From: Thermoanaerobaculaceae bacterium
Lineage (GTDB): Bacteria; Acidobacteriota; Thermoanaerobaculia; Multivoradales; UBA5704
Direction: 5' to 3'
Length of the DNA stretch: 64,000 bases
NCBI GenBank assembly: GCA_963717295.1
Contig: OY970330.1
Location: 7,932,822 to 7,996,821 of the forward strand
The notes beneath the pieces were generated by a model. The model did not search any database, was not told where the DNA came from, and saw only the letters and a program-made list of their open reading frames with translations. Positions 2,652 to 11,940 of this stretch are shown here, piece by piece. Numbering within the stretch: position 1 is the first letter of the stretch; each line of letters opens with the position of its first letter. The translations under genes and the position numbers were made by a program.

Positions 2652-2686
2652 AAAAAAGGAGCGCACAGCGCTCCTTCTTTTTTTGT
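2652..2686. terminator. bidirectional rho-independent terminator between convergent uppP and CHI-like gene
   Basis: AAAAAA-GGAGCGC-ACA-GCGCTCC-TTCTTTTTTT: perfect 7-bp stem, A-run on one side and T-run on the other. Confidence 0.6.
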
Positions 2687-2713
2687 CCGGGAGATGAGCG
2701 AGGGGGCGAATCC

Positions 2714-3268
2714 TCACCCCCCAAGCAGGGCCTTCTTGAAGTCCTGGCCGGGATCGGGATTGGGGCCGATCCAGGTGGAGAGGATGGCATCGCCCACGGG
2801 CTTGCCGGGGAGCGTGCCCTTCACCTTGCCGTTGACCTCGACCTGGGTACCCTCGCCGGGGACGTAGGTCAGCACCAGCTCCTTGCCCTTCTCGATCGGC
2901 TCCATCCAGCCGCAGAGCGTCGTGAACTCCTTCTTCACCTCGGCCGGGGCATTCGGGGTGTTCGCCGCCAGGCCGTCGTTCCAGGCGTCGCACATCTGCG
3001 CCTTGCTGACGCCGTAGAGGAAGTGCATCACCTGCCGCCGCGGACCGTCGGCGCCGAGGATCTTGGCCGCGGACTTCTCCTTCTGGGGAAGGTAGAGCCC
3101 GGCGACGTAGACCTTGATGAAAAACTTCGTGCGCAGGGCGATGCCGTTGAGCGTCAGGCTCTGGCCTTTCACCTCGGCCTTGTCGGGCAGGGTGACCCCG
3201 GCGAGCGAGGCGGCACCGGCGGGCACGGTGAGGAGCAGGGAGAGGAGGGCTGAGTATAGAATTCGCAT
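2714..3268 (-). CDS. secreted chalcone-isomerase-like (CHI-fold) family protein
   Basis: Signal peptide MRILYSALLSLLLTVPAGAA. Motif LTLNGIALRTKFFIKVYVAGLYL resembles the CHI-family GxGxR..K..KVYAxGLYL core. Confidence 0.5.
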   Translation of the reverse strand: MRILYSALLSLLLTVPAGAASLAGVTLPDKAEVKGQSLTLNGIALRTKFFIKVYVAGLYLPQKEKSAAKILGADGPRRQVMHFLYGVSKAQMCDAWNDGLAANTPNAPAEVKKEFTTLCGWMEPIEKGKELVLTYVPGEGTQVEVNGKVKGTLPGKPVGDAILSTWIGPNPDPGQDFKKALLGG

Positions 3269-3369
3269 CGGTTCCTCCAATGAAGGTTGGCTCTTGGGGA
3301 GCGTTCAGCGGCAAGTCTAGCCGAATTCTCAAGGCAACTCCGCGGCCGCCGCCTCCGTATCTGACGATC

Positions 3370-3993
3370 ATGAAGACAGACGCCGAGCTGGTCGCCAGTA
3401 CTCTGCGAGGCTCCCAGGACGCCTTCCGCGAGCTGGTGGTGCGCTTCGAGCGGCCGGTCTACACCCTCGTGCAGCGCATGGTCCAGAACCCGGCGACCGC
3501 CGAGGATCTGGCGCAGGAGGTCTTCCTCAAAGCCTACCGCCGGCTCGACACCTACGATCCGCAGTGGAAGTTTTCGAGCTGGCTGTTCAAGATCGCGCAC
3601 AACACGACCATCGACCACCTGCGCCGGGGCGTGCCGGAGACGGTGCCCCTGGAGTCGGAGGACGAGGACCGGGGGAGTCTCTCCGCCGTGCTGGCGGACG
3701 AGACGGGCGAGAGCCCGCACGCGGCGGCGGAACGGCGGGACTTGGGGCGCTCGCTGGAGCGGGCCCTCTCGCACCTGCGGCCGGAGTACCGCGTGGCGGT
3801 CGTCATGTTCTACGCTCAGGGCGCCTCGTACCAGGAGATCTGCGAGGTCACCGGCCTGCCGCTCGGCACGGTGAAGACCAACCTCCACCGGGCGCGCAAG
3901 GAGCTGGCCCAGGTGATGACGGCCCTCGGCTGGGGGCCGGGGGGCACGGCACCGGCGGGTCCCGCTGAAACCGGAAACGCCCGCGCCTCGTAG
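3370..3993 (+). CDS. RNA polymerase sigma-70 factor, ECF subfamily
   Basis: Region 2 (ATAEDLAQEVFLKAYRRLDTYDP) and region 4 (YRVAVVMFYAQGASYQEICEVTGLPLGTVKTNLHRARKEL) motifs. Confidence 0.85.
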   Translation: MKTDAELVASTLRGSQDAFRELVVRFERPVYTLVQRMVQNPATAEDLAQEVFLKAYRRLDTYDPQWKFSSWLFKIAHNTTIDHLRRGVPETVPLESEDEDRGSLSAVLADETGESPHAAAERRDLGRSLERALSHLRPEYRVAVVMFYAQGASYQEICEVTGLPLGTVKTNLHRARKELAQVMTALGWGPGGTAPAGPAETGNARAS

Positions 3994-4019
3994 GGCGGCT
4001 CAGAAGGAGAAATGACGGA

Positions 4020-4571
4020 ATGCGCCCCCATCCCCAAGACACCCAAGACGCCCTGAACCGCTGGCTCGCCGCCGAGCAGCTCGACAGCTCCGATGCCGCT
4101 GATCGTGCTCTGCGCGAGTTGTTCGAGGCCCTGCCCCTGCTCGCTCCGGCCGCCGGTTTCGCGGACCGGGCGTTCGCCCGGGCCGGGTTTCGGCCGGCGA
4201 AGCGGGACGTCTTCGCCTCGCTCGGACTCCGCCTGGTGCTGGCCGCCAGCCTGGTCGCCCTCAGTCTGGGTGCGATCTGGCTGCCTCCGGCTCTGCGGGC
4301 CCTCGGCGGCTGGTTCGGAGGGTTGTTCAGCCTGAGCGGCGTGGTGGGGTTGGGGACGCGGGGAATGTCCGAGGCCAGCCGTGGGCTGGCCTCGGTCCTG
4401 AGCCTGGGCGAGTGGCTGTTCTCGCTCGGTCAGGCCCTTTCCGGGCTGCTGTTGGCGCCGCGGGTCATGGCGGCTCTCGCCACATGTCTGCTCGTTTCGG
4501 GCCTGGCTTTCCGTTTTCTCCGCGCCCACATCTCTGGTGAGAGGAGTTTTAGCTATGTCGACCCCATCTGA
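4020..4571 (+). CDS. putative membrane anti-sigma factor
   Basis: Immediately downstream of the ECF sigma. N-terminal cytoplasmic segment followed by TM helices. No recognisable catalytic motifs. Confidence 0.45.
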   Translation: MRPHPQDTQDALNRWLAAEQLDSSDAADRALRELFEALPLLAPAAGFADRAFARAGFRPAKRDVFASLGLRLVLAASLVALSLGAIWLPPALRALGGWFGGLFSLSGVVGLGTRGMSEASRGLASVLSLGEWLFSLGQALSGLLLAPRVMAALATCLLVSGLAFRFLRAHISGERSFSYVDPI

Positions 4572-6174
4572 TTGGCAACGGTCCGCCGGCAAGAGATTTT
4601 TCCGCGCCGCGGTCGTTTTCTTGAGCCTCGGCGCGTCCGGGGCGATGTTTTCCGCGTCTCTCGCGGCGCCGCAGCCCGCCAGCAACCCGCCGGCTTCGGC
4701 GGAGGAGAGGACGAATCTGCGTCAGACCCTCGAGAGCCGGTACGAGGTGCTGCCGGTGCAGGGCGGCATCGCGCTCAAGCCCCGCCAGCCCAAGGCGGGA
4801 ATCCGTACCATCGAGGTGACCTCCGACGGCGTGGCGGTCAACGGTGAGCGGGTGACCGCCCGCACGCTGCACGACTGGCTTGGCACCGACGCCGACCTGG
4901 TGCTGCGCCTGCAGAGCTTGAGCGCGGCCGAGCAGCGGCAGACCTTCGGCCTCGAAGGCGGCGCCCCCGCGCCGGCTGCCCCCGCGGCCCCTCCGGCCCC
5001 CGCGGCCTCTCCCGCGGCGGAACCGGGCGAATCGGCCGGCAAGGACGGCGAGGCCGAGGTGAGCGACGAGCCCGCGGCCGAGGAGACTCCGGAGGCCTCC
5101 GCCCCCTCCGCGCGTCACGGCGACCGCCATACCTCCGGCAGCCGCGTCAACGTCGGCGGCAGCGTGACCGTCAGCAAGGACGAGGTGGCGGAAGAGGTGG
5201 TGGCCGTCGGCGGCTCGGCGACGGTCGAGGGCGAGGTGGAGAGGGACGTCACGGCCATCGGCGGCTCCGCCCGTATCAACGGCAAGGTGGGCGGCGAGGT
5301 GGTGGCGGTGGGCAGCGGCGTCTATCTCGGCCCCAACGCCGAGGTGGAGGGGGACGTGACGAGCGTCGGCGGTACGGTCCACCGGGAGCCGGGAGCGAGA
5401 GTGCAGGGCAGGACCAACGAGGTGGGCATGGGTATCCTGCCGTTCGGCCGCCACGTGCACTTCGGCCGCTACGGCCACGATTGGGAGCCCTGGGGCGGCG
5501 TCTCCCGGGTGATGAGCAGCACCCTGTTCACGGTGCTCATGGGGCTGCTCGTCTGCCTGGTGCTGCTCATCGCCCGCGCGCCGTTGGAGCGGGTGGACCG
5601 CCAGCTCGTGGCCCGGCCCTGGCCGTCGGCGGCTACGGGGCTCGCCGGGTTCGTCTTCTTCTGGCCGCTGGTGGCGGCGATGACCATCCTGCTGGCCATC
5701 ACCATCATCGGCTGCGCGCTGTTCCTGCTCTACCCGTTCCTGTTCCTGTTCGTCGGGCTGCTTCTCCTCCTGGGCTACTCGGCGTCGGCCTACCGTCTCG
5801 GCCGTCTGGTGGAGGGCCGCTTCGGCCGCAACTTCGGGAGCCAGTACGTGGCGGCGCTGGTGGGCGTGCTGCTGATCCAGGTGTGGTCCATCCTCGGCCA
5901 CATGCTGGACCTGCTGCCCGGCCCTCTCGGCTTTTTCGCCGCGATGGTGGGGCTGTTCGGATTCCTGGTGCAGGCCGTGGCCTGGATCGTGGGTTTCGGC
6001 GCCGTCATCCTCGCCCGCTTCGGCCTCGAGCCGGGCTACTGGCAGGGGCAGGGGCCGCCAATGGCGCCGATGACACCCGCTCCCGTGCCTCCAGATTCCT
6101 ATCAGGAGCCCGGCGAGCCGCTGCCGCTCTCCGACTCGGAGCCGCCGGCCGAGTGGCAGGAGCCGCCGCTGTAG
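4555..6174 (+). CDS. membrane protein with DUF4097/bactofilin-like beta-helical repeats (LiaG/YvlB-like)
   Basis: Signal/TM segment, Ala/Pro-rich linker, tandem repeats VGGSVTVSKDEV..VAVGGSATVEGEVERDVTAIGGSARINGKVGGEVVAVG, then 4-5 C-terminal TM helices. Third gene of the ECF operon. Confidence 0.5.
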   Translation: MSTPSDWQRSAGKRFFRAAVVFLSLGASGAMFSASLAAPQPASNPPASAEERTNLRQTLESRYEVLPVQGGIALKPRQPKAGIRTIEVTSDGVAVNGERVTARTLHDWLGTDADLVLRLQSLSAAEQRQTFGLEGGAPAPAAPAAPPAPAASPAAEPGESAGKDGEAEVSDEPAAEETPEASAPSARHGDRHTSGSRVNVGGSVTVSKDEVAEEVVAVGGSATVEGEVERDVTAIGGSARINGKVGGEVVAVGSGVYLGPNAEVEGDVTSVGGTVHREPGARVQGRTNEVGMGILPFGRHVHFGRYGHDWEPWGGVSRVMSSTLFTVLMGLLVCLVLLIARAPLERVDRQLVARPWPSAATGLAGFVFFWPLVAAMTILLAITIIGCALFLLYPFLFLFVGLLLLLGYSASAYRLGRLVEGRFGRNFGSQYVAALVGVLLIQVWSILGHMLDLLPGPLGFFAAMVGLFGFLVQAVAWIVGFGAVILARFGLEPGYWQGQGPPMAPMTPAPVPPDSYQEPGEPLPLSDSEPPAEWQEPPL

Positions 6175-6192
6175 GGCAGGATCTCGGTCAGG

Positions 6193-6225
6193 ACGGCTCG
6201 CCGGAAGGTCCGGCGAGCCGTTCCG
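6193..6225. repeat. 33-bp hairpin direct repeat, copy A (identical to recD2 3' end copy B at 8022-8054)
   Basis: ACGGCTCGCCGGAAGGTCCGGCGAGCCGTTCCG vs ACGGCTCGCCGGCAGGTCCGGCGAGCCGTTCCG, 32/33 identical. Confidence 0.75.
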
Positions 6226-6667
6226 AATCACGGCCCCTTGGACCGGCGTAGCACCAACGCCGGCGATACTTGGTCCCGCTCCACCGGACCCTTGCCTCAT
6301 CGCAGGTTACTGCTCGGCGTAGCAGGTGAATCGGGGCTGTTTAGCCGAATGCTGCAGCGCGATCCGCCCGCGCCAATTCTCACAGAGAGTTTAGTTAGGT
6401 CCGGAATCCGAGCTTCCAAAGACTTCGGGTAGGGTAACCGCGAAAAGCGCCCCCCACGGCACGCTTAACACATGCCGGCCTTGGTATTGACGCGGTTTAG
6501 AAACCGGGGTACAGTTCTAACCACCCGAAGAATGAAGCAGATAACCAAGCCTGAGGGATTCTGGATTTGAGCTGGGCTGAGTCCTAAGGACTTGGCGGAG
6601 AAGTTCAGAGTAAAGTTCGGCGCCGATACGTGGAATTCGAGTCTAGCTAAGCTAAAGGGAGGTAGAA

Positions 6668-7270
6668 ATGACATCCAATACGGCATCGCCAATTTTCAAT
6701 GTTTTCGGACTCCGGCCGGCCCTCAGAGGAAAAGTGAGCTTAATCGTGATCACCCTAGTCGGGGTACTCGTAACCCCATCAGTTCTATATTCGGCAGAGC
6801 AAAGCTCCTCACCTGCAGTCGAACTGGGTAATAGCGGGAAGAACGCTCCGTCGACATCAAAATATCAAAGTGCGGCAGGGAGGTATCTTGAGCCTGGAGA
6901 AGTTACCGACCTAGCTGAGGAGCGGAGCACTGCAACACCGTCACTTTTGGTTGGGAACGCGGCCGCCGGCCCGTTTCTCGTCTCCGCCGCACAATACGGC
7001 ATTGTCAGTCTTAGTCAAACTACAGGCGCGATCAATTTCTGTGCAGGTTATACCTACCTGAATTCAGGTATGCCATTTGGAAAGTGCAAAAAGATCGGAA
7101 CTATTTCGCCAACAGGACTCTTGGGTAACGCTAGAATAGATGCGACATCGAATACCCATGCCTTCGTCACAAATACTGCCACTGGGCTGGTTGTTGAATG
7201 CTATCTCGGTTTCAACTCTGGTAGTGGCGAGCCTGTCGGGAGTTGCATTTCGCAGCAGCTACAACCATAA
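6668..7270 (+). CDS. hypothetical secreted protein (low-GC islet)
   Basis: Strong RBS AAGGGAGGT 6 nt upstream of ATG. Signal/TM LIVITLVGVLVTPSVLYSA. About 48% GC against ~68% background. No recognisable domain. Confidence 0.55.
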   Translation: MTSNTASPIFNVFGLRPALRGKVSLIVITLVGVLVTPSVLYSAEQSSSPAVELGNSGKNAPSTSKYQSAAGRYLEPGEVTDLAEERSTATPSLLVGNAAAGPFLVSAAQYGIVSLSQTTGAINFCAGYTYLNSGMPFGKCKKIGTISPTGLLGNARIDATSNTHAFVTNTATGLVVECYLGFNSGSGEPVGSCISQQLQP

Positions 7271-7419
7271 AGATAAAAAGCGGCCGCCGAACAGCTCCCC
7301 TTGGCTGGCGTGATGAGGTTGATAAGGAAAGAGAAGATCTACATCTCGCCGGAGCAACAGGATCGTATCGCGTCGATTCTCGCTCGCCTTGGCGATTTAG
7401 GGAGCCGGACGGTCCGCCG

Positions 7420-8005
7420 TAGGCATACGGTGGTGGAATGTACGGATACGGCGGCTCGTCGTCAGCATCGGCGGCCCGATGTACGGATACGGCGCCACGT
7501 CGTAAGCATCGGGTGGAGCGTCGTATCGATACGGCGGCCCACCGTATCGATACGGCATGACGCCGTCAGCATCGGCGGCCCGATGTATGGATACGGCGCC
7601 ACGTCGTATCCATCCGGCGTCTCGTCGTCACCATCGGCGGAGCGTCGTATCGATACGACGGCTCACCGTATCGATACGGCGTGACGCCGTAAGCATCGGC
7701 GGCTCGATGTATGGATACGGCGCCACGTCGTATCCATCCGGCGGCTCGTCGTCCCCATCGGCGGAGCGTCGTATCGATACGACGGCTCACTGTATCGATC
7801 CGGCGTCATGCCATAAGCATCAGGCGGCCCGATGTATGGATACGGCGCCACGTCGTATCCATCCGGCGTCTCGTCGTCCCCATCGGCGGAACGTCGTATC
7901 GATACGACGGCTCACCGTATCGATCCGGCGTGACACCGTAAGCATCGGCGGCCCGATGGATGGATACGGCGTTACGTTGTATCGGTACGACGTCGGTGAT
8001 CTCCA
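7420..8005. repeat. tandem array of ~124-bp palindrome-rich repeat (about 4.5 copies)
   Basis: GCATCGGCGGCCCGATGTATGGATACGG recurs at ~7466, 7569, 7693, 7817, 7942. Each unit carries perfect palindromes CGTCGTATCGATACGACG and CCGTATCGATACGG. Period is not a multiple of 3 and ORFs are open on both strands. Confidence 0.85.
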
Positions 8006-8020
8006 CGGTTGTGCTGCCAT

Positions 8021-10225
8021 TCACGGCTCGCCGGCAGGTCCGGCGAGCCGTTCCGCCAGCCGCGTAAAGCGCGCCCGCACCCGCCGGTTTCCCACCGCGA
8101 TCCTCAGCGCCTTCTCCTCTCCCACCAGCACGGCCAGCCGCTTCGCCCGGGTCAGGGCGGTGTAGAGCAGGTTGCGCTGCAGCATCACGTAGTGCGTCGA
8201 GTGCAGGGGGATCACGACGCAGGGGTACTCGCTGCCCTGCGACTTGTGGATCGAGCAGGCGTAGGCGAGGACGAGCTCGTCGAGCGAGCCGTGATCGTAG
8301 ATCACCTCGCGGCCGTCGAGCGCCACGGTCACCAGCTGGTCGACCTCGTCGATGGCCACGATGCGCCCGATGTCGCCGTTGAAGACCTCCAGGTCGTAGT
8401 TGTTCCGCACTTGCATCACCTTGTCGCCCACCCGCAGCGTCTGGCCGCCGCGGGTGATCTCGACCCCCGAGGGATTTAGCAGGTCGCGCAGCACGGCGTT
8501 CAGGTTCTCGGTGCCCAGGGGGCCGCGGTTCATGGGAGTGAGCACCTGGATCTGTTCCACGGGATCGAGGCCGAACTTTGCGGGAATGCGGCGGGCGACG
8601 AGCTGGGCGAGCGTCTCCACCAGCTCCTCGGGCTGGGCGCGCTCGATGAAGAAGAAGTCGCCGTCGCTGTCCACCGACTCCAGGATGGGCATCAGCCCCT
8701 GGTTGACCCGGTGGGCGTTGACCACGATCAGGCTGCGCTCGGCCTGGCGGAAGATCTCGGTGAGGCGCACGACCTCGATCGAGTCCGAGCGGATGAGGTC
8801 GGCGAGCACCCGGCCCGGCCCCACCGAGGGGAGCTGGTCGACGTCGCCGACGAGGATCAGGCGGCCGTGGTCCGGCACCGCCCGCAGCACGTGGTTGGCG
8901 AGGACGGTGTCGAGCATCGAGGCCTCGTCCACGATCAGCAGGTCGCAGGAGAGCGGATGATCGCGGTTGCGCTGGAACTGGCGGGTCTTCGGGTCGATCT
9001 CCAGCAGGCGGTGGAGGGTCGTGGCCTCGGAGCCCGTGGCCTCGGCGAGGCGCTTGGCGGCGCGGCCGGTGGGAGCGGCGAGCAGCACCTTCTGGCGCTT
9101 CTTTTCGAGGATCTTCACCAGCCCACGCACCAGCGTGGTCTTGCCGGTGCCGGGGCCGCCGGTGATCACCAGAACCTTGCGGGTGAGGCCGGCGCGCACG
9201 GCCTGGCGCTGCTGGCGGGCGAGCTCGATCGTCTCGCTCTTCTCGAACCAGTCGAGGGCGCGGTCGACGTCGATCTCCAGCGGCAAAGGCGGCTGGATGA
9301 GCAGGGCCCGCAGCCGCGCCGCGACACCGGTCTCGGCGGTGTGGAGGGACCTGAGGAAGACCGCTTGATCCTCTGGCGCGTCCAACGGTTCCAGAACGAT
9401 CTGCTCGGTGTCCGCCAGCGCCGCGAGGGCTTGGTCCACCAGGGCGGCCGGGGCTTCCAGCAGCTTCTCGGCCTCCTCCAGCAGGGTCTTTCTCGGCAGG
9501 TAGACGTGTCCGCGGTCCCCGGCCTGGCCCAGCAGGTAGAGCGAGCCCGCCTCGATGCGCTGCGGCGCCGTGGGCGGAATGCCGAGGGCGGCGGCGATCT
9601 TGTCCGCCGACTTGAAGCCGATGCCGTGGATGTCCGTCGCCAGCCGGTAGGGGTTCTCCCGCACCAGCTCGGTGGCATGGGCGCCGTAGGCCTTGTAGAT
9701 CTTGATCGCGTAGTGGGTGGAGACGCCGTGCGACTGGAGGAAGATCATCACCTCCTTGATCTCCCGCTGCTCCTCCCAGGCGCGCAGGATGTCGCGGCTG
9801 CGCTTGGGGCCGATCCCCTCGACCTCGACCAGCCGCTCCGGCCGGTTCTCGATGACGTCGAGCGTCTCCAGGCCGAAGGTCGCCACCAGCCGCGAGGCCA
9901 TGACCTTGCCGATGCCGCGGATCAACCCGGACCCCAGGTACTTCTCGATCCCCCCCACCGTCGCCGGCGTCACCGTGGCGTAGGAGGCGACCTTGAACTG
10001 CTTGCCGTACTTCGGGTCCTGGATCCAGATGCCGGTGAGCCGCAGGTTCTCGCCGGGCTGCACTCCCAGGAGGTTGCCGACCGCCGTCACCAGGTCGCGC
10101 TGGCCGGGCACGGTGAGGCGCGCCACCGTCCAGGCGTTCTCCTCGTTGCTGAAGACGATCCGCTCCAGGACCCCTTCGACGGTGGTCTGGGAGCTGGGCG
10201 GCTTGGGATCGAAGGGAAGAGTCAT
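8021..10225 (-). CDS. recD2: ATP-dependent RecD-like DNA helicase RecD2
   Basis: 734 aa. N-terminal OB/HhH region, Walker A VITGGPGTGKTT, Walker B LLIVDEASM, C-terminal SH3-like region VGDKVMQVRNNYD..VFNGDIG and helicase motif VI. The 918-aa ORF 7806..10562 overlapping it is an artifact. Confidence 0.9.
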   Translation of the reverse strand: MTLPFDPKPPSSQTTVEGVLERIVFSNEENAWTVARLTVPGQRDLVTAVGNLLGVQPGENLRLTGIWIQDPKYGKQFKVASYATVTPATVGGIEKYLGSGLIRGIGKVMASRLVATFGLETLDVIENRPERLVEVEGIGPKRSRDILRAWEEQREIKEVMIFLQSHGVSTHYAIKIYKAYGAHATELVRENPYRLATDIHGIGFKSADKIAAALGIPPTAPQRIEAGSLYLLGQAGDRGHVYLPRKTLLEEAEKLLEAPAALVDQALAALADTEQIVLEPLDAPEDQAVFLRSLHTAETGVAARLRALLIQPPLPLEIDVDRALDWFEKSETIELARQQRQAVRAGLTRKVLVITGGPGTGKTTLVRGLVKILEKKRQKVLLAAPTGRAAKRLAEATGSEATTLHRLLEIDPKTRQFQRNRDHPLSCDLLIVDEASMLDTVLANHVLRAVPDHGRLILVGDVDQLPSVGPGRVLADLIRSDSIEVVRLTEIFRQAERSLIVVNAHRVNQGLMPILESVDSDGDFFFIERAQPEELVETLAQLVARRIPAKFGLDPVEQIQVLTPMNRGPLGTENLNAVLRDLLNPSGVEITRGGQTLRVGDKVMQVRNNYDLEVFNGDIGRIVAIDEVDQLVTVALDGREVIYDHGSLDELVLAYACSIHKSQGSEYPCVVIPLHSTHYVMLQRNLLYTALTRAKRLAVLVGEEKALRIAVGNRRVRARFTRLAERLAGPAGEP
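8022..8054. repeat. 33-bp hairpin direct repeat, copy B (encodes RecD2 C-terminus ...RLAGPAGEP and likely its terminator)
   Basis: Matches copy A at 6193-6225. Confidence 0.75.
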
Positions 10226-10314: not shown

Positions 10315-11703
<1,389 letters not shown>

Positions 11704-11724: not shown

Positions 11725-11940
11725 ATGGAGCTTCACACGGCGGTGATGATCCACAACGGGGTCATGGGAATGAAGGGCCAGCGGGGCGTTCTCTTGCAGA
11801 TCAGCTCGGACGGCTATTACGAGATCAACTGCACCTTCGGCGAGCGGGTGCACCGCACGCTGCTGCCGATCGACGGCACGGTGCTCATCAGCCTCGAGCC
11901 CGAGGAGCCCACCCGCGCCGATCAGGAGATCGAGCGCTGA
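11725..11940 (+). CDS. small hypothetical protein (71 aa), translationally coupled to pdxJ
   Basis: RBS GGAGGAG upstream. Its stop TGA overlaps the pdxJ ATG (ATGA). No recognised motif. Confidence 0.4.
   Translation: MELHTAVMIHNGVMGMKGQRGVLLQISSDGYYEINCTFGERVHRTLLPIDGTVLISLEPEEPTRADQEIER

Follow-up and report, generated by a model that had tools for sequence, protein, structure and literature searches.

Genomic context of the array

The window, by which we mean the entire 64-kb stretch of DNA analysed here, contains a palindromic tandem array between a 200-residue ORF and recD2, and both its existence and its position, as given in the original prediction, were borne out; Tandem Repeats Finder reported periods of 124, 62 and 21 nt. 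The coordinates of the features are collected in Table 1; loci and contigs other than the window are designated by L numbers.

Table 1. Features of the array and of the insertion that carries it (window coordinates).
Feature	Coordinates	Strand	Remarks
Left 33-nt direct repeat	6193..6225		Hairpin with perfect 12-bp stem; ancestral left flank kept
Strain-specific insert (islet) carrying the array	6226..8022		1797 bp; absent in four relatives
200-aa ORF	6668..7270	+	In the low-GC (~0.50) part of the islet; no Pfam family
Whole palindromic tandem array	7416..8005		~28 subunits of 20-21 nt
Leading subunits	7416..7519		Degenerate (blocks of 41, 42 and 21 nt), irregular relative to the rest of the array
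Four higher-order units	7520..8005		124/125 nt; the last unit decays near 7985
27-nt near-palindrome ATGGATACGGCGCCACGTCGTATCCAT	7587..7613; also 7711, 7836		12-bp stem and 3-nt loop if single-stranded
Perfect 18-nt palindrome CGTCGTATCGATACGACG	7643..7660; also 7767-7784, 7892-7909		
recD2, ATP-dependent RecD-like helicase	8021..10225	-	Array lies 3' of the gene, beyond the gene's hairpin
Right 33-nt direct repeat	8023..8055		Overlaps the last recD2 codons; terminator-like hairpin of recD2

No exact match to RecD2 is on record; its relatives at 91-97% identity are labelled Thermoanaerobaculia, which places the window in this class. The islet is missing from four such relatives (nine assemblies), where recD2 is followed within 12-25 bp by a convergent gene of 523-545 residues. 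Alignment of the junctions showed a single 33-nt hairpin in the relatives, whereas the window has two direct copies of it bounding the 1797-bp insert, in agreement with the islet flanked by direct repeats that had been predicted; RecD2 was shortened by one residue on insertion, its end changing from GEPS-stop to GEP-stop. Besides these two bounding copies no other copy of the 33-nt hairpin was found in the window, the 1797-bp insert includes no recombinase or integrase gene, and a scan of the islet for promoters and terminators gave results at chance level. The array reached the recD2 terminator hairpin inside a 1.8-kb insertion in the window strain. Neither the absence of the islet in close relatives nor the dispersed, lineage-specific family described below was within view of the original prediction.

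A short-read contig from an independent assembly (L037; Logan, ERR11594404) is 100% identical to positions 2668-7597 of the window, that is, 4930 nt, and ends within the array; this corroborates the islet together with the initial ~180 nt of the array, whereas the exact copy number depends on the long assembly alone. These last two facts, the short-read assembly ending at window position 7597 and a copy number backed by one assembly, would suit a collapsed or expanded repeat, an assembly artefact that had been foreseen as one of two findings able to refute the prediction. Against it stand the identity of the corroborated segment, the differences of 6-10% among the units, in a pattern typical of real higher-order repeats, and the occurrence of similar arrays in many independent assemblies; we therefore regard an artefact as extremely unlikely.

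The segment of the islet that carries the 200-residue ORF has a GC content of 50% as compared to ~69% in the flanks, and the encoded protein displays a hydrophobic N-terminal stretch. Other Thermoanaerobaculia contigs yielded six homologues (48-72% identity), as a rule close to toxin-antitoxin genes (BrnT/BrnA, PIN) and never beside an array, which indicates that the islet ORF and the array are separate passengers. We infer that the array is not under selection at the recD2 locus.

Upstream of the islet, positions 4020-6174 (plus strand) hold a 183-residue ORF and a gene for a membrane protein of 545 residues, one segment of which weakly resembles bactofilin (E = 0.004); these genes lie downstream of an ECF sigma factor, as seen in the relatives, and look like a sigma/anti-sigma-type cluster convergent with recD2. 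On the other side of recD2, a 71-residue ORF (window 11725-11940, plus strand; L028 5285-5500) located between a sigma-54 response regulator and pdxJ was also called in all the relatives inspected; it matches no Pfam family and represents a conserved small protein.

Architecture of the array

Between positions 7490 and 7983 Tandem Repeats Finder detected 4.0 copies of a 124-nt period with 91% matches and no indels, within which shorter periods of 62 nt (8.0 copies) and 21 nt (23.4 copies) are nested; when the degenerate leader is included the array spans 7416-8005, or ~4.75 unit lengths. The predicted period of ~124 nt and about 4.5 units is thus close to what was found, except that one unit measures 125 nt. 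The array is hierarchical: palindromic subunits of ~21 nt make up 62-nt blocks (21+21+20), and two types of block alternate to give the 124-nt unit. The A block consists of two ClaI-centred palindromes and one GTAAGCATCGG subunit; the B block, which follows it, carries the GGATACGGCGCCACGTCGTATCC hairpin.

The minus strand of the window is the one carrying CCGATGCTTAC, and was named T; an example of a subunit on this strand is CCGTATCGATACGGTGAGCCG. Each elementary subunit of ~21 nt is formed by an arm of 7-9 nt and an inverted copy of that arm, and the spacer from one core to the next is palindromic as well (e.g. TACGGCG-TCA-CGCCGTA), so that a symmetry centre, alternately the ATCGAT core and the spacer, is encountered every ~10.5 nt and the arms alternate along the entire array. 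As many as 19 inverted-repeat pairs were counted within 600 nt. Six exact copies of the self-complementary 12-mer CGTATCGATACG were counted, or 7 if one mismatch is tolerated, all of them within the array, against 0.06 occurrences expected by chance.

Two perfect ClaI-centred palindromes had been anticipated in each unit. The 18-mer is indeed perfect in three of the four units, but the 14-mer CCGTATCGATACGG is perfect in only two (at 7542 and 7666); similarly, the third, near-palindromic element exists as a 27-mer but is found in three units only. Neither a solitary subunit nor a second array was detected in the 64-kb window, which counts against the REP-like reading given below. Elsewhere in the window ATCGAT sites are not markedly depleted (12 observed, 18.5 expected), and a role as restriction-site decoy was discarded.

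Coding capacity and similarity to known elements

The array is non-coding. No Pfam family was detected in the ORFs across it; the 149-residue translation of the plus strand had no relative among 5.8 billion proteins, and the 74-residue translation of the minus strand gave four matches among 1.84 billion representative proteins, two of them spurious ORFs over similar arrays and the other two unrelated repeat proteins. Open stretches of 70-166 codons do exist on both strands, as predicted, but every one of the six frames is interrupted by 1-4 stops. A conserved protein encoded across the array, the other finding that could have overturned the prediction, was accordingly not encountered. The unit lengths of 62 and 124 nt are not multiples of 3, also as predicted. 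When 16 arrays of the family described below were compared, the best-scoring period was a multiple of 3 in three of them, namely 249 in the window, 123 in L020 and 165 in L018, each of which also has a near-equal-scoring period that is not divisible by 3; in the remaining 13 it was 41, 62, 82, 83, 103 or 124 nt.

We consider it extremely improbable that the array is a decayed or frameshift-dependent coding repeat, in which the minus strand would specify Tyr/Pro-rich heptads such as PPYRYDA. The translation of that strand does contain runs like PYRYGGPPYRYDAPPDAYDVAPYPYIGPP and heptads such as PYRYGGPPYRYDAPP, and a true in-frame heptad protein (GRIDTLD) from a Terriglobia MAG contains the same GCCGTATCGATAC word. 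However, the heptad frame is broken every 62 nt, the one-base-short subunit responsible being present in L005 and other arrays too, and in addition to the stops and the lack of a homologous protein family, the plus strand is equally "protein-like" because the DNA is palindromic.

The subunits are contiguous and lack unique spacers between them, which excludes a CRISPR array, as the original prediction had already concluded. An iteron or partition array was also rejected, given that no rep or par domain is present in the flanking ORFs, that the locus is chromosomal and syntenic with the relatives, and that a BLAST comparison of the islet with plasmid and phage sequences returned no match.

Folding and symmetry

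When one unit was folded as single-stranded DNA, a 16-bp stem and a 12-bp stem with a 3-nt loop were predicted (z = -4.6 for the plus strand and -2.2 for the minus strand); the former arises because both ClaI-centred palindromes pair with each other. Folded as RNA, each of the 16 arrays was more stable than its dinucleotide shuffles (z from -2 to -9), with neither strand being consistently better.

This strong predicted folding, together with the location of the array 3' of two convergent genes, is what could be expected of a structured ncRNA, as offered by the original prediction, or of an element in the 3'-UTR of either gene, recD2 or the islet ORF. A search of Rfam 15 with positions 5500-9000 at E <= 1, however, gave only three matches to microRNA models, scoring 21 bits against gathering thresholds of 54-84 (E = 0.4-0.8), i.e. 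noise. Furthermore, G-U pairs favour neither strand consistently, the orientation of the arrays relative to their neighbouring genes is mixed (~8 to 4), the number and size of units are not conserved, and the recD2 hairpin sits between recD2 and the array. An RNA of this kind is, in our opinion, very unlikely.

The palindromes of the different arrays come in two flavours, CGTATCGATACG in the window, L016 and L024 and GGTATCGATACC in most others, with arm sequences that co-vary. Of 172 pairs flanking the core, 81 were G..C and 32 were C..G. Over 174 spacer hairpins, the four inner positions formed on average 2.87 of 4 possible pairs as compared to 2.31 +/- 0.06 with shuffled partners, a value reached by none of 500 shuffles, although copies within an array are related and the test thus overstates the independent evidence. 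Both folding and pairing pattern fit selection or conversion acting on the symmetry of the DNA itself (as a hairpin, a cruciform or the site of a dimeric binder) rather than on a strand-specific RNA.

A dispersed repeat family in Thermoanaerobaculia

GTDB genomes were scanned with a pattern of two cores 21 nt apart. Nine matches were obtained, of which L005 alone was related: it is a short array located between toxin-antitoxin genes in a Thermoanaerobaculia MAG. Among the unrelated matches, L002 looks like a pair of sites in a promoter region and L008 is a true in-frame heptad protein. In the latter (Terriglobia MAG, positions 3080-3320), the GRIDTLD repeat is present in more than 8 copies encoded by GGCCGTATCGATACTCTTGAT; it has the 13-mer GCCGTATCGATAC in common with the window array, probably through the choice of search pattern.

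A pattern common to the window and L005 was then used on soil metagenomes and yielded 17 loci, 14 of which have tandem arrays of window-type subunits, 180-560 nt long, with periods of 41, 62, 82, 83, 103, 123 or 124 nt. An additional array of 640 nt with a period of 41 (L043) was reached through a spurious ORF match. The family is therefore represented by arrays at at least 15 soil-metagenome or MAG loci besides the window, with units of 82-103 nt at 83-93% matches among them, and one metagenome contig of 265 kb bears two arrays. In viral contigs one of two patterns had a single, unrelated coding match and the other had none. As these loci were found with a pattern derived from the window array, the conservation of CCGATGCTTAC and GTATCGATAC is partly a matter of ascertainment; likewise, a one-base-short GATGCTTAC subunit is common to all arrays, but this word was part of the search pattern.

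The arrays are intergenic, lying in both orientations (~8 to 4) between ORFs supported by GC3. Their neighbours are ordinary and varied, including RNase E/G, glyoxalase, a CNNM transporter, an OmpW-like protein, an Rce1-like protease, formamidase, and PIN and HEPN proteins; no conserved gene or flank adjoins them, the flanks being unrelated except where two loci of related populations are orthologous, which is the case for three pairs. In one of these pairs, L015 and L017, the arrays differ by exactly one 41-bp block within flanks that are 92-100% identical, which is VNTR behaviour. This difference, together with unit sizes that vary by locus, fits the recombination hotspot that was among the options of the original prediction. 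We conclude that the array is a member of a lineage-specific intergenic repeat family in Thermoanaerobaculia (Acidobacteriota); in the literature searched, nothing relevant was found on the core motif or on tandem repeats of Thermoanaerobaculia, and the family has apparently not been described before.

Other 21-nt arrays were observed along the way. L038 (2654-2947) and L039 (2576-2947), from two otherwise syntenic MAGs, carry 14.0 and 17.7 copies, respectively, of a different repeat (GACCGGATGGTCACGCCCCAA). It falls within a gene called with 121 or 149 residues and probably encodes in-frame heptads that vary in copy number. The contig of L017 bears, besides its palindromic array, an array of 21-nt period (AGCAACGACTGCTAAGACGAT) at 10447-10669, with 10.6 copies and super-periods of 42 and 84 nt.

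Possible association with a Y1 transposase element

The arrays could in principle be REP-like sequences tied to a Y1 (HUH) transposase, serving as substrates or preferred landing sites of an element that encodes a RayT-like transposase of 306 residues. The array of L012 is abutted directly by the right end of such an element, ~1.3 kb in length. The 306-residue protein matched the NCBIfam model REP_Tyr_transpos ("REP-associated tyrosine transposase") with 51.9 bits and E = 7e-14, and Pfam Y1_Tnp with 21.5 bits; an HFH motif (HuH-type) was read by eye. L043 holds a copy of the element with an internal deletion, and the 640-nt array (period 41) is located ~140 nt ahead of the start codon of this copy, roughly where a left end as long as that in L012 would be expected to begin. 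Moreover, a member of the same protein cluster (90%) was named "REP element-mobilizing transposase RayT" by JGI, and the source genome very probably has the element; a look-up of its copy of the protein gave no record.

Against this link, the scores fall under the curated cut-offs of both families (80 and 23 bits, respectively), no array adjoins the copies selected through the protein (L044 and L045) or three of the ends seen in L027, the subunits have no sequence in common with the ends of the element, and neither a copy nor an end of the element is present in the window; besides, both loci showing adjacency, L012 and L043, were ascertained through their arrays. The element fragments of L027 lie 3-5 kb from its array, and a sequence search of the PDB with the Y1-transposase-like protein gave no match. 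We regard it as distinctly unlikely that the arrays are substrates or favoured targets of this transposase; the link itself is suggestive, whether as preferential insertion beside hairpin-forming DNA or as shared residence in permissive intergenic DNA.

As to the ~1.3-kb element itself, it has TIR-like ends and was found at L012 (3268-4620), L027 (3048-5810, nested copies), L043 (6990-7131, internal deletion), L044 and L045, in differing contexts and with 79-91% DNA identity among copies. Di Nocera et al. (PMC3733652) noted acidobacterial Y1 transposases with terminal inverted repeats on either side.

Proposed origin and possible roles

The reading that we favour, and hold to be probable, is that the array is a non-coding, hairpin-prone palindromic minisatellite belonging to an intergenic family specific to Thermoanaerobaculia and working like REP/BIME clusters. 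Whenever it becomes single-stranded during replication or transcription, the array would fold into a run of G+C-rich hairpins in either of two alternative registers; mispairing between subunits would then add or remove blocks of 41 or 62 nt, and gain and loss of blocks by such slippage could have built the higher-order periods of 62 and 124 nt. By analogy with REP sequences, any function is most likely a by-product: the hairpins might stall exonucleases, might insulate the islet ORF and recD2 from each other's convergent transcription, or might offer hairpin DNA to Y1 transposases, and the array may thus have side effects as a terminator or insulator.

One difficulty for a REP-like minisatellite is that strict two-turn phasing of perfect 12-nt palindromes is equally expected of an array that binds protein. 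According to this main rival, the repeats are iterated sites bound by a protein dimer, for instance of a regulator, of a nucleoid-associated protein or of a factor silencing foreign DNA. Perfect palindromes of 12-18 nt placed 21 nt, or two helical turns, apart would bring the dimers to the same side of the helix and thereby nucleate a filament. The 21-nt spacing of the palindromes agrees with this proposal; so does the joint change of half-sites between CGTATCGATACG and GGTATCGATACC, as expected if the specificity of a dimer drifts, and the lack of strand bias in folding suits a function of the double-stranded DNA. Nevertheless, the array has no DNA-binding, rep or par gene next to it and none is conserved beside the other arrays, many cores are degenerate and non-palindromic (e.g. 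GTAAGCATCGG and GTATCCTTAC), the mean spacing is 20.5-20.7 nt instead of 21, and unit size varies freely among arrays. On balance we consider iterated binding sites unlikely. The broader proposal that the arrays are functional platforms coated by a dedicated protein, either a dimeric binder or a RayT-like Y1 transposase acting on the hairpins, is distinctly unlikely in our view. If it were true, Thermoanaerobaculia would have a REP/RAYT-like or chromatin-like system in which tandem arrays take the place of dispersed single hairpins and which might mark or insulate newly acquired islets such as that of the window.

The array leaves the current understanding of bacterial repeats unchanged, and is a modest curiosity rather than a new kind of system. 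It adds a repeat family to a poorly studied and mostly uncultured class of Acidobacteriota. Arrays of this type break short-read assemblies, as happened at window position 7597, and can serve as VNTR-type markers when strains are typed from metagenomes; they may also mark permissive intergenic sites where mobile DNA lands. In addition, the clean pair of insertion and empty site, with its unusual duplication of a 33-bp hairpin, provides a tractable case of DNA entering a terminator without an integrase.

Comparison with known repeat systems

The REP/BIME clusters of Escherichia coli, Pseudomonas and Stenotrophomonas (PMC2817692, PMC3733652) resemble the array in being short, G+C-rich, imperfect palindromes that are extragenic, regularly spaced and of alternating orientation, often located between convergent genes and near terminators, lineage-specific in sequence and possibly linked to a Y1 transposase. 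Thus, the 21-nt subunits, with arms of 7-9 nt and stems of 12-16 bp, correspond to the REP unit, an imperfect palindrome of 20-40 nt able to form a stem-loop; the array is extragenic, being confined between the ends of the islet ORF (7270) and of recD2 (8021); and its arms alternate in orientation every ~10.5 nt. In REP sequences a GTAG or CGTC tag is also conserved, left unpaired at one of the stem ends (PMC3733652). This tag is missing here, since the CGTC of the 18-mer is paired with GACG and is absent in the GGTATCGATACC flavour of most other arrays. REP sequences are furthermore dispersed in tens to thousands of copies per genome, where the window offers one array in 64 kb and a metagenome contig two in 265 kb, and they flank an associated RAYT gene, where the link to a Y1 transposase is here only suggestive. 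On these grounds we did not file the array as REP. Further differences are that the 21-nt subunits overlap in a continuous chain with two alternating symmetry centres, that up to ~28 of them are joined with a higher-order periodicity, and that no solitary copies exist in 64 kb.

Mycobacterial MIRUs are likewise intergenic, head-to-tail units (40-125 nt) that differ by whole-unit steps between related strains; however, they are not palindromic, are oriented with the operon and contain small ORFs overlapping the flanking genes, whereas the units of the array are palindromic, of mixed orientation (~8 to 4) and mostly not multiples of 3. Iteron and centromere-like arrays, such as those of plasmid and phage origins or parC of R1, share with it repeats of ~20 nt at about two helical turns, but those consist of directly repeated units beside a rep or par gene, with a single locus in each replicon, while the arrays described here have inverted arms and occupy many chromosomal loci without a rep or par gene. 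Only as an analogy, the diverged 21-nt monomers organised in blocks of 62 and 124 nt recall the higher-order repeats of eukaryotic satellites, from which they differ in scale, organism and the lack of a centromere role; as in that case, blocks that are more alike than their monomers point to unequal exchange or slippage of whole blocks.

Finally, bacterial minisatellites or VNTRs are made of head-to-tail units of 10-150 nt with high identity, as is the array (124 nt, 4.0 copies, 91%), and change between strains by steps of whole units, which was observed for the family in L015 and L017, the relatives of the window having no islet. The array is, by definition, a bacterial minisatellite/VNTR.
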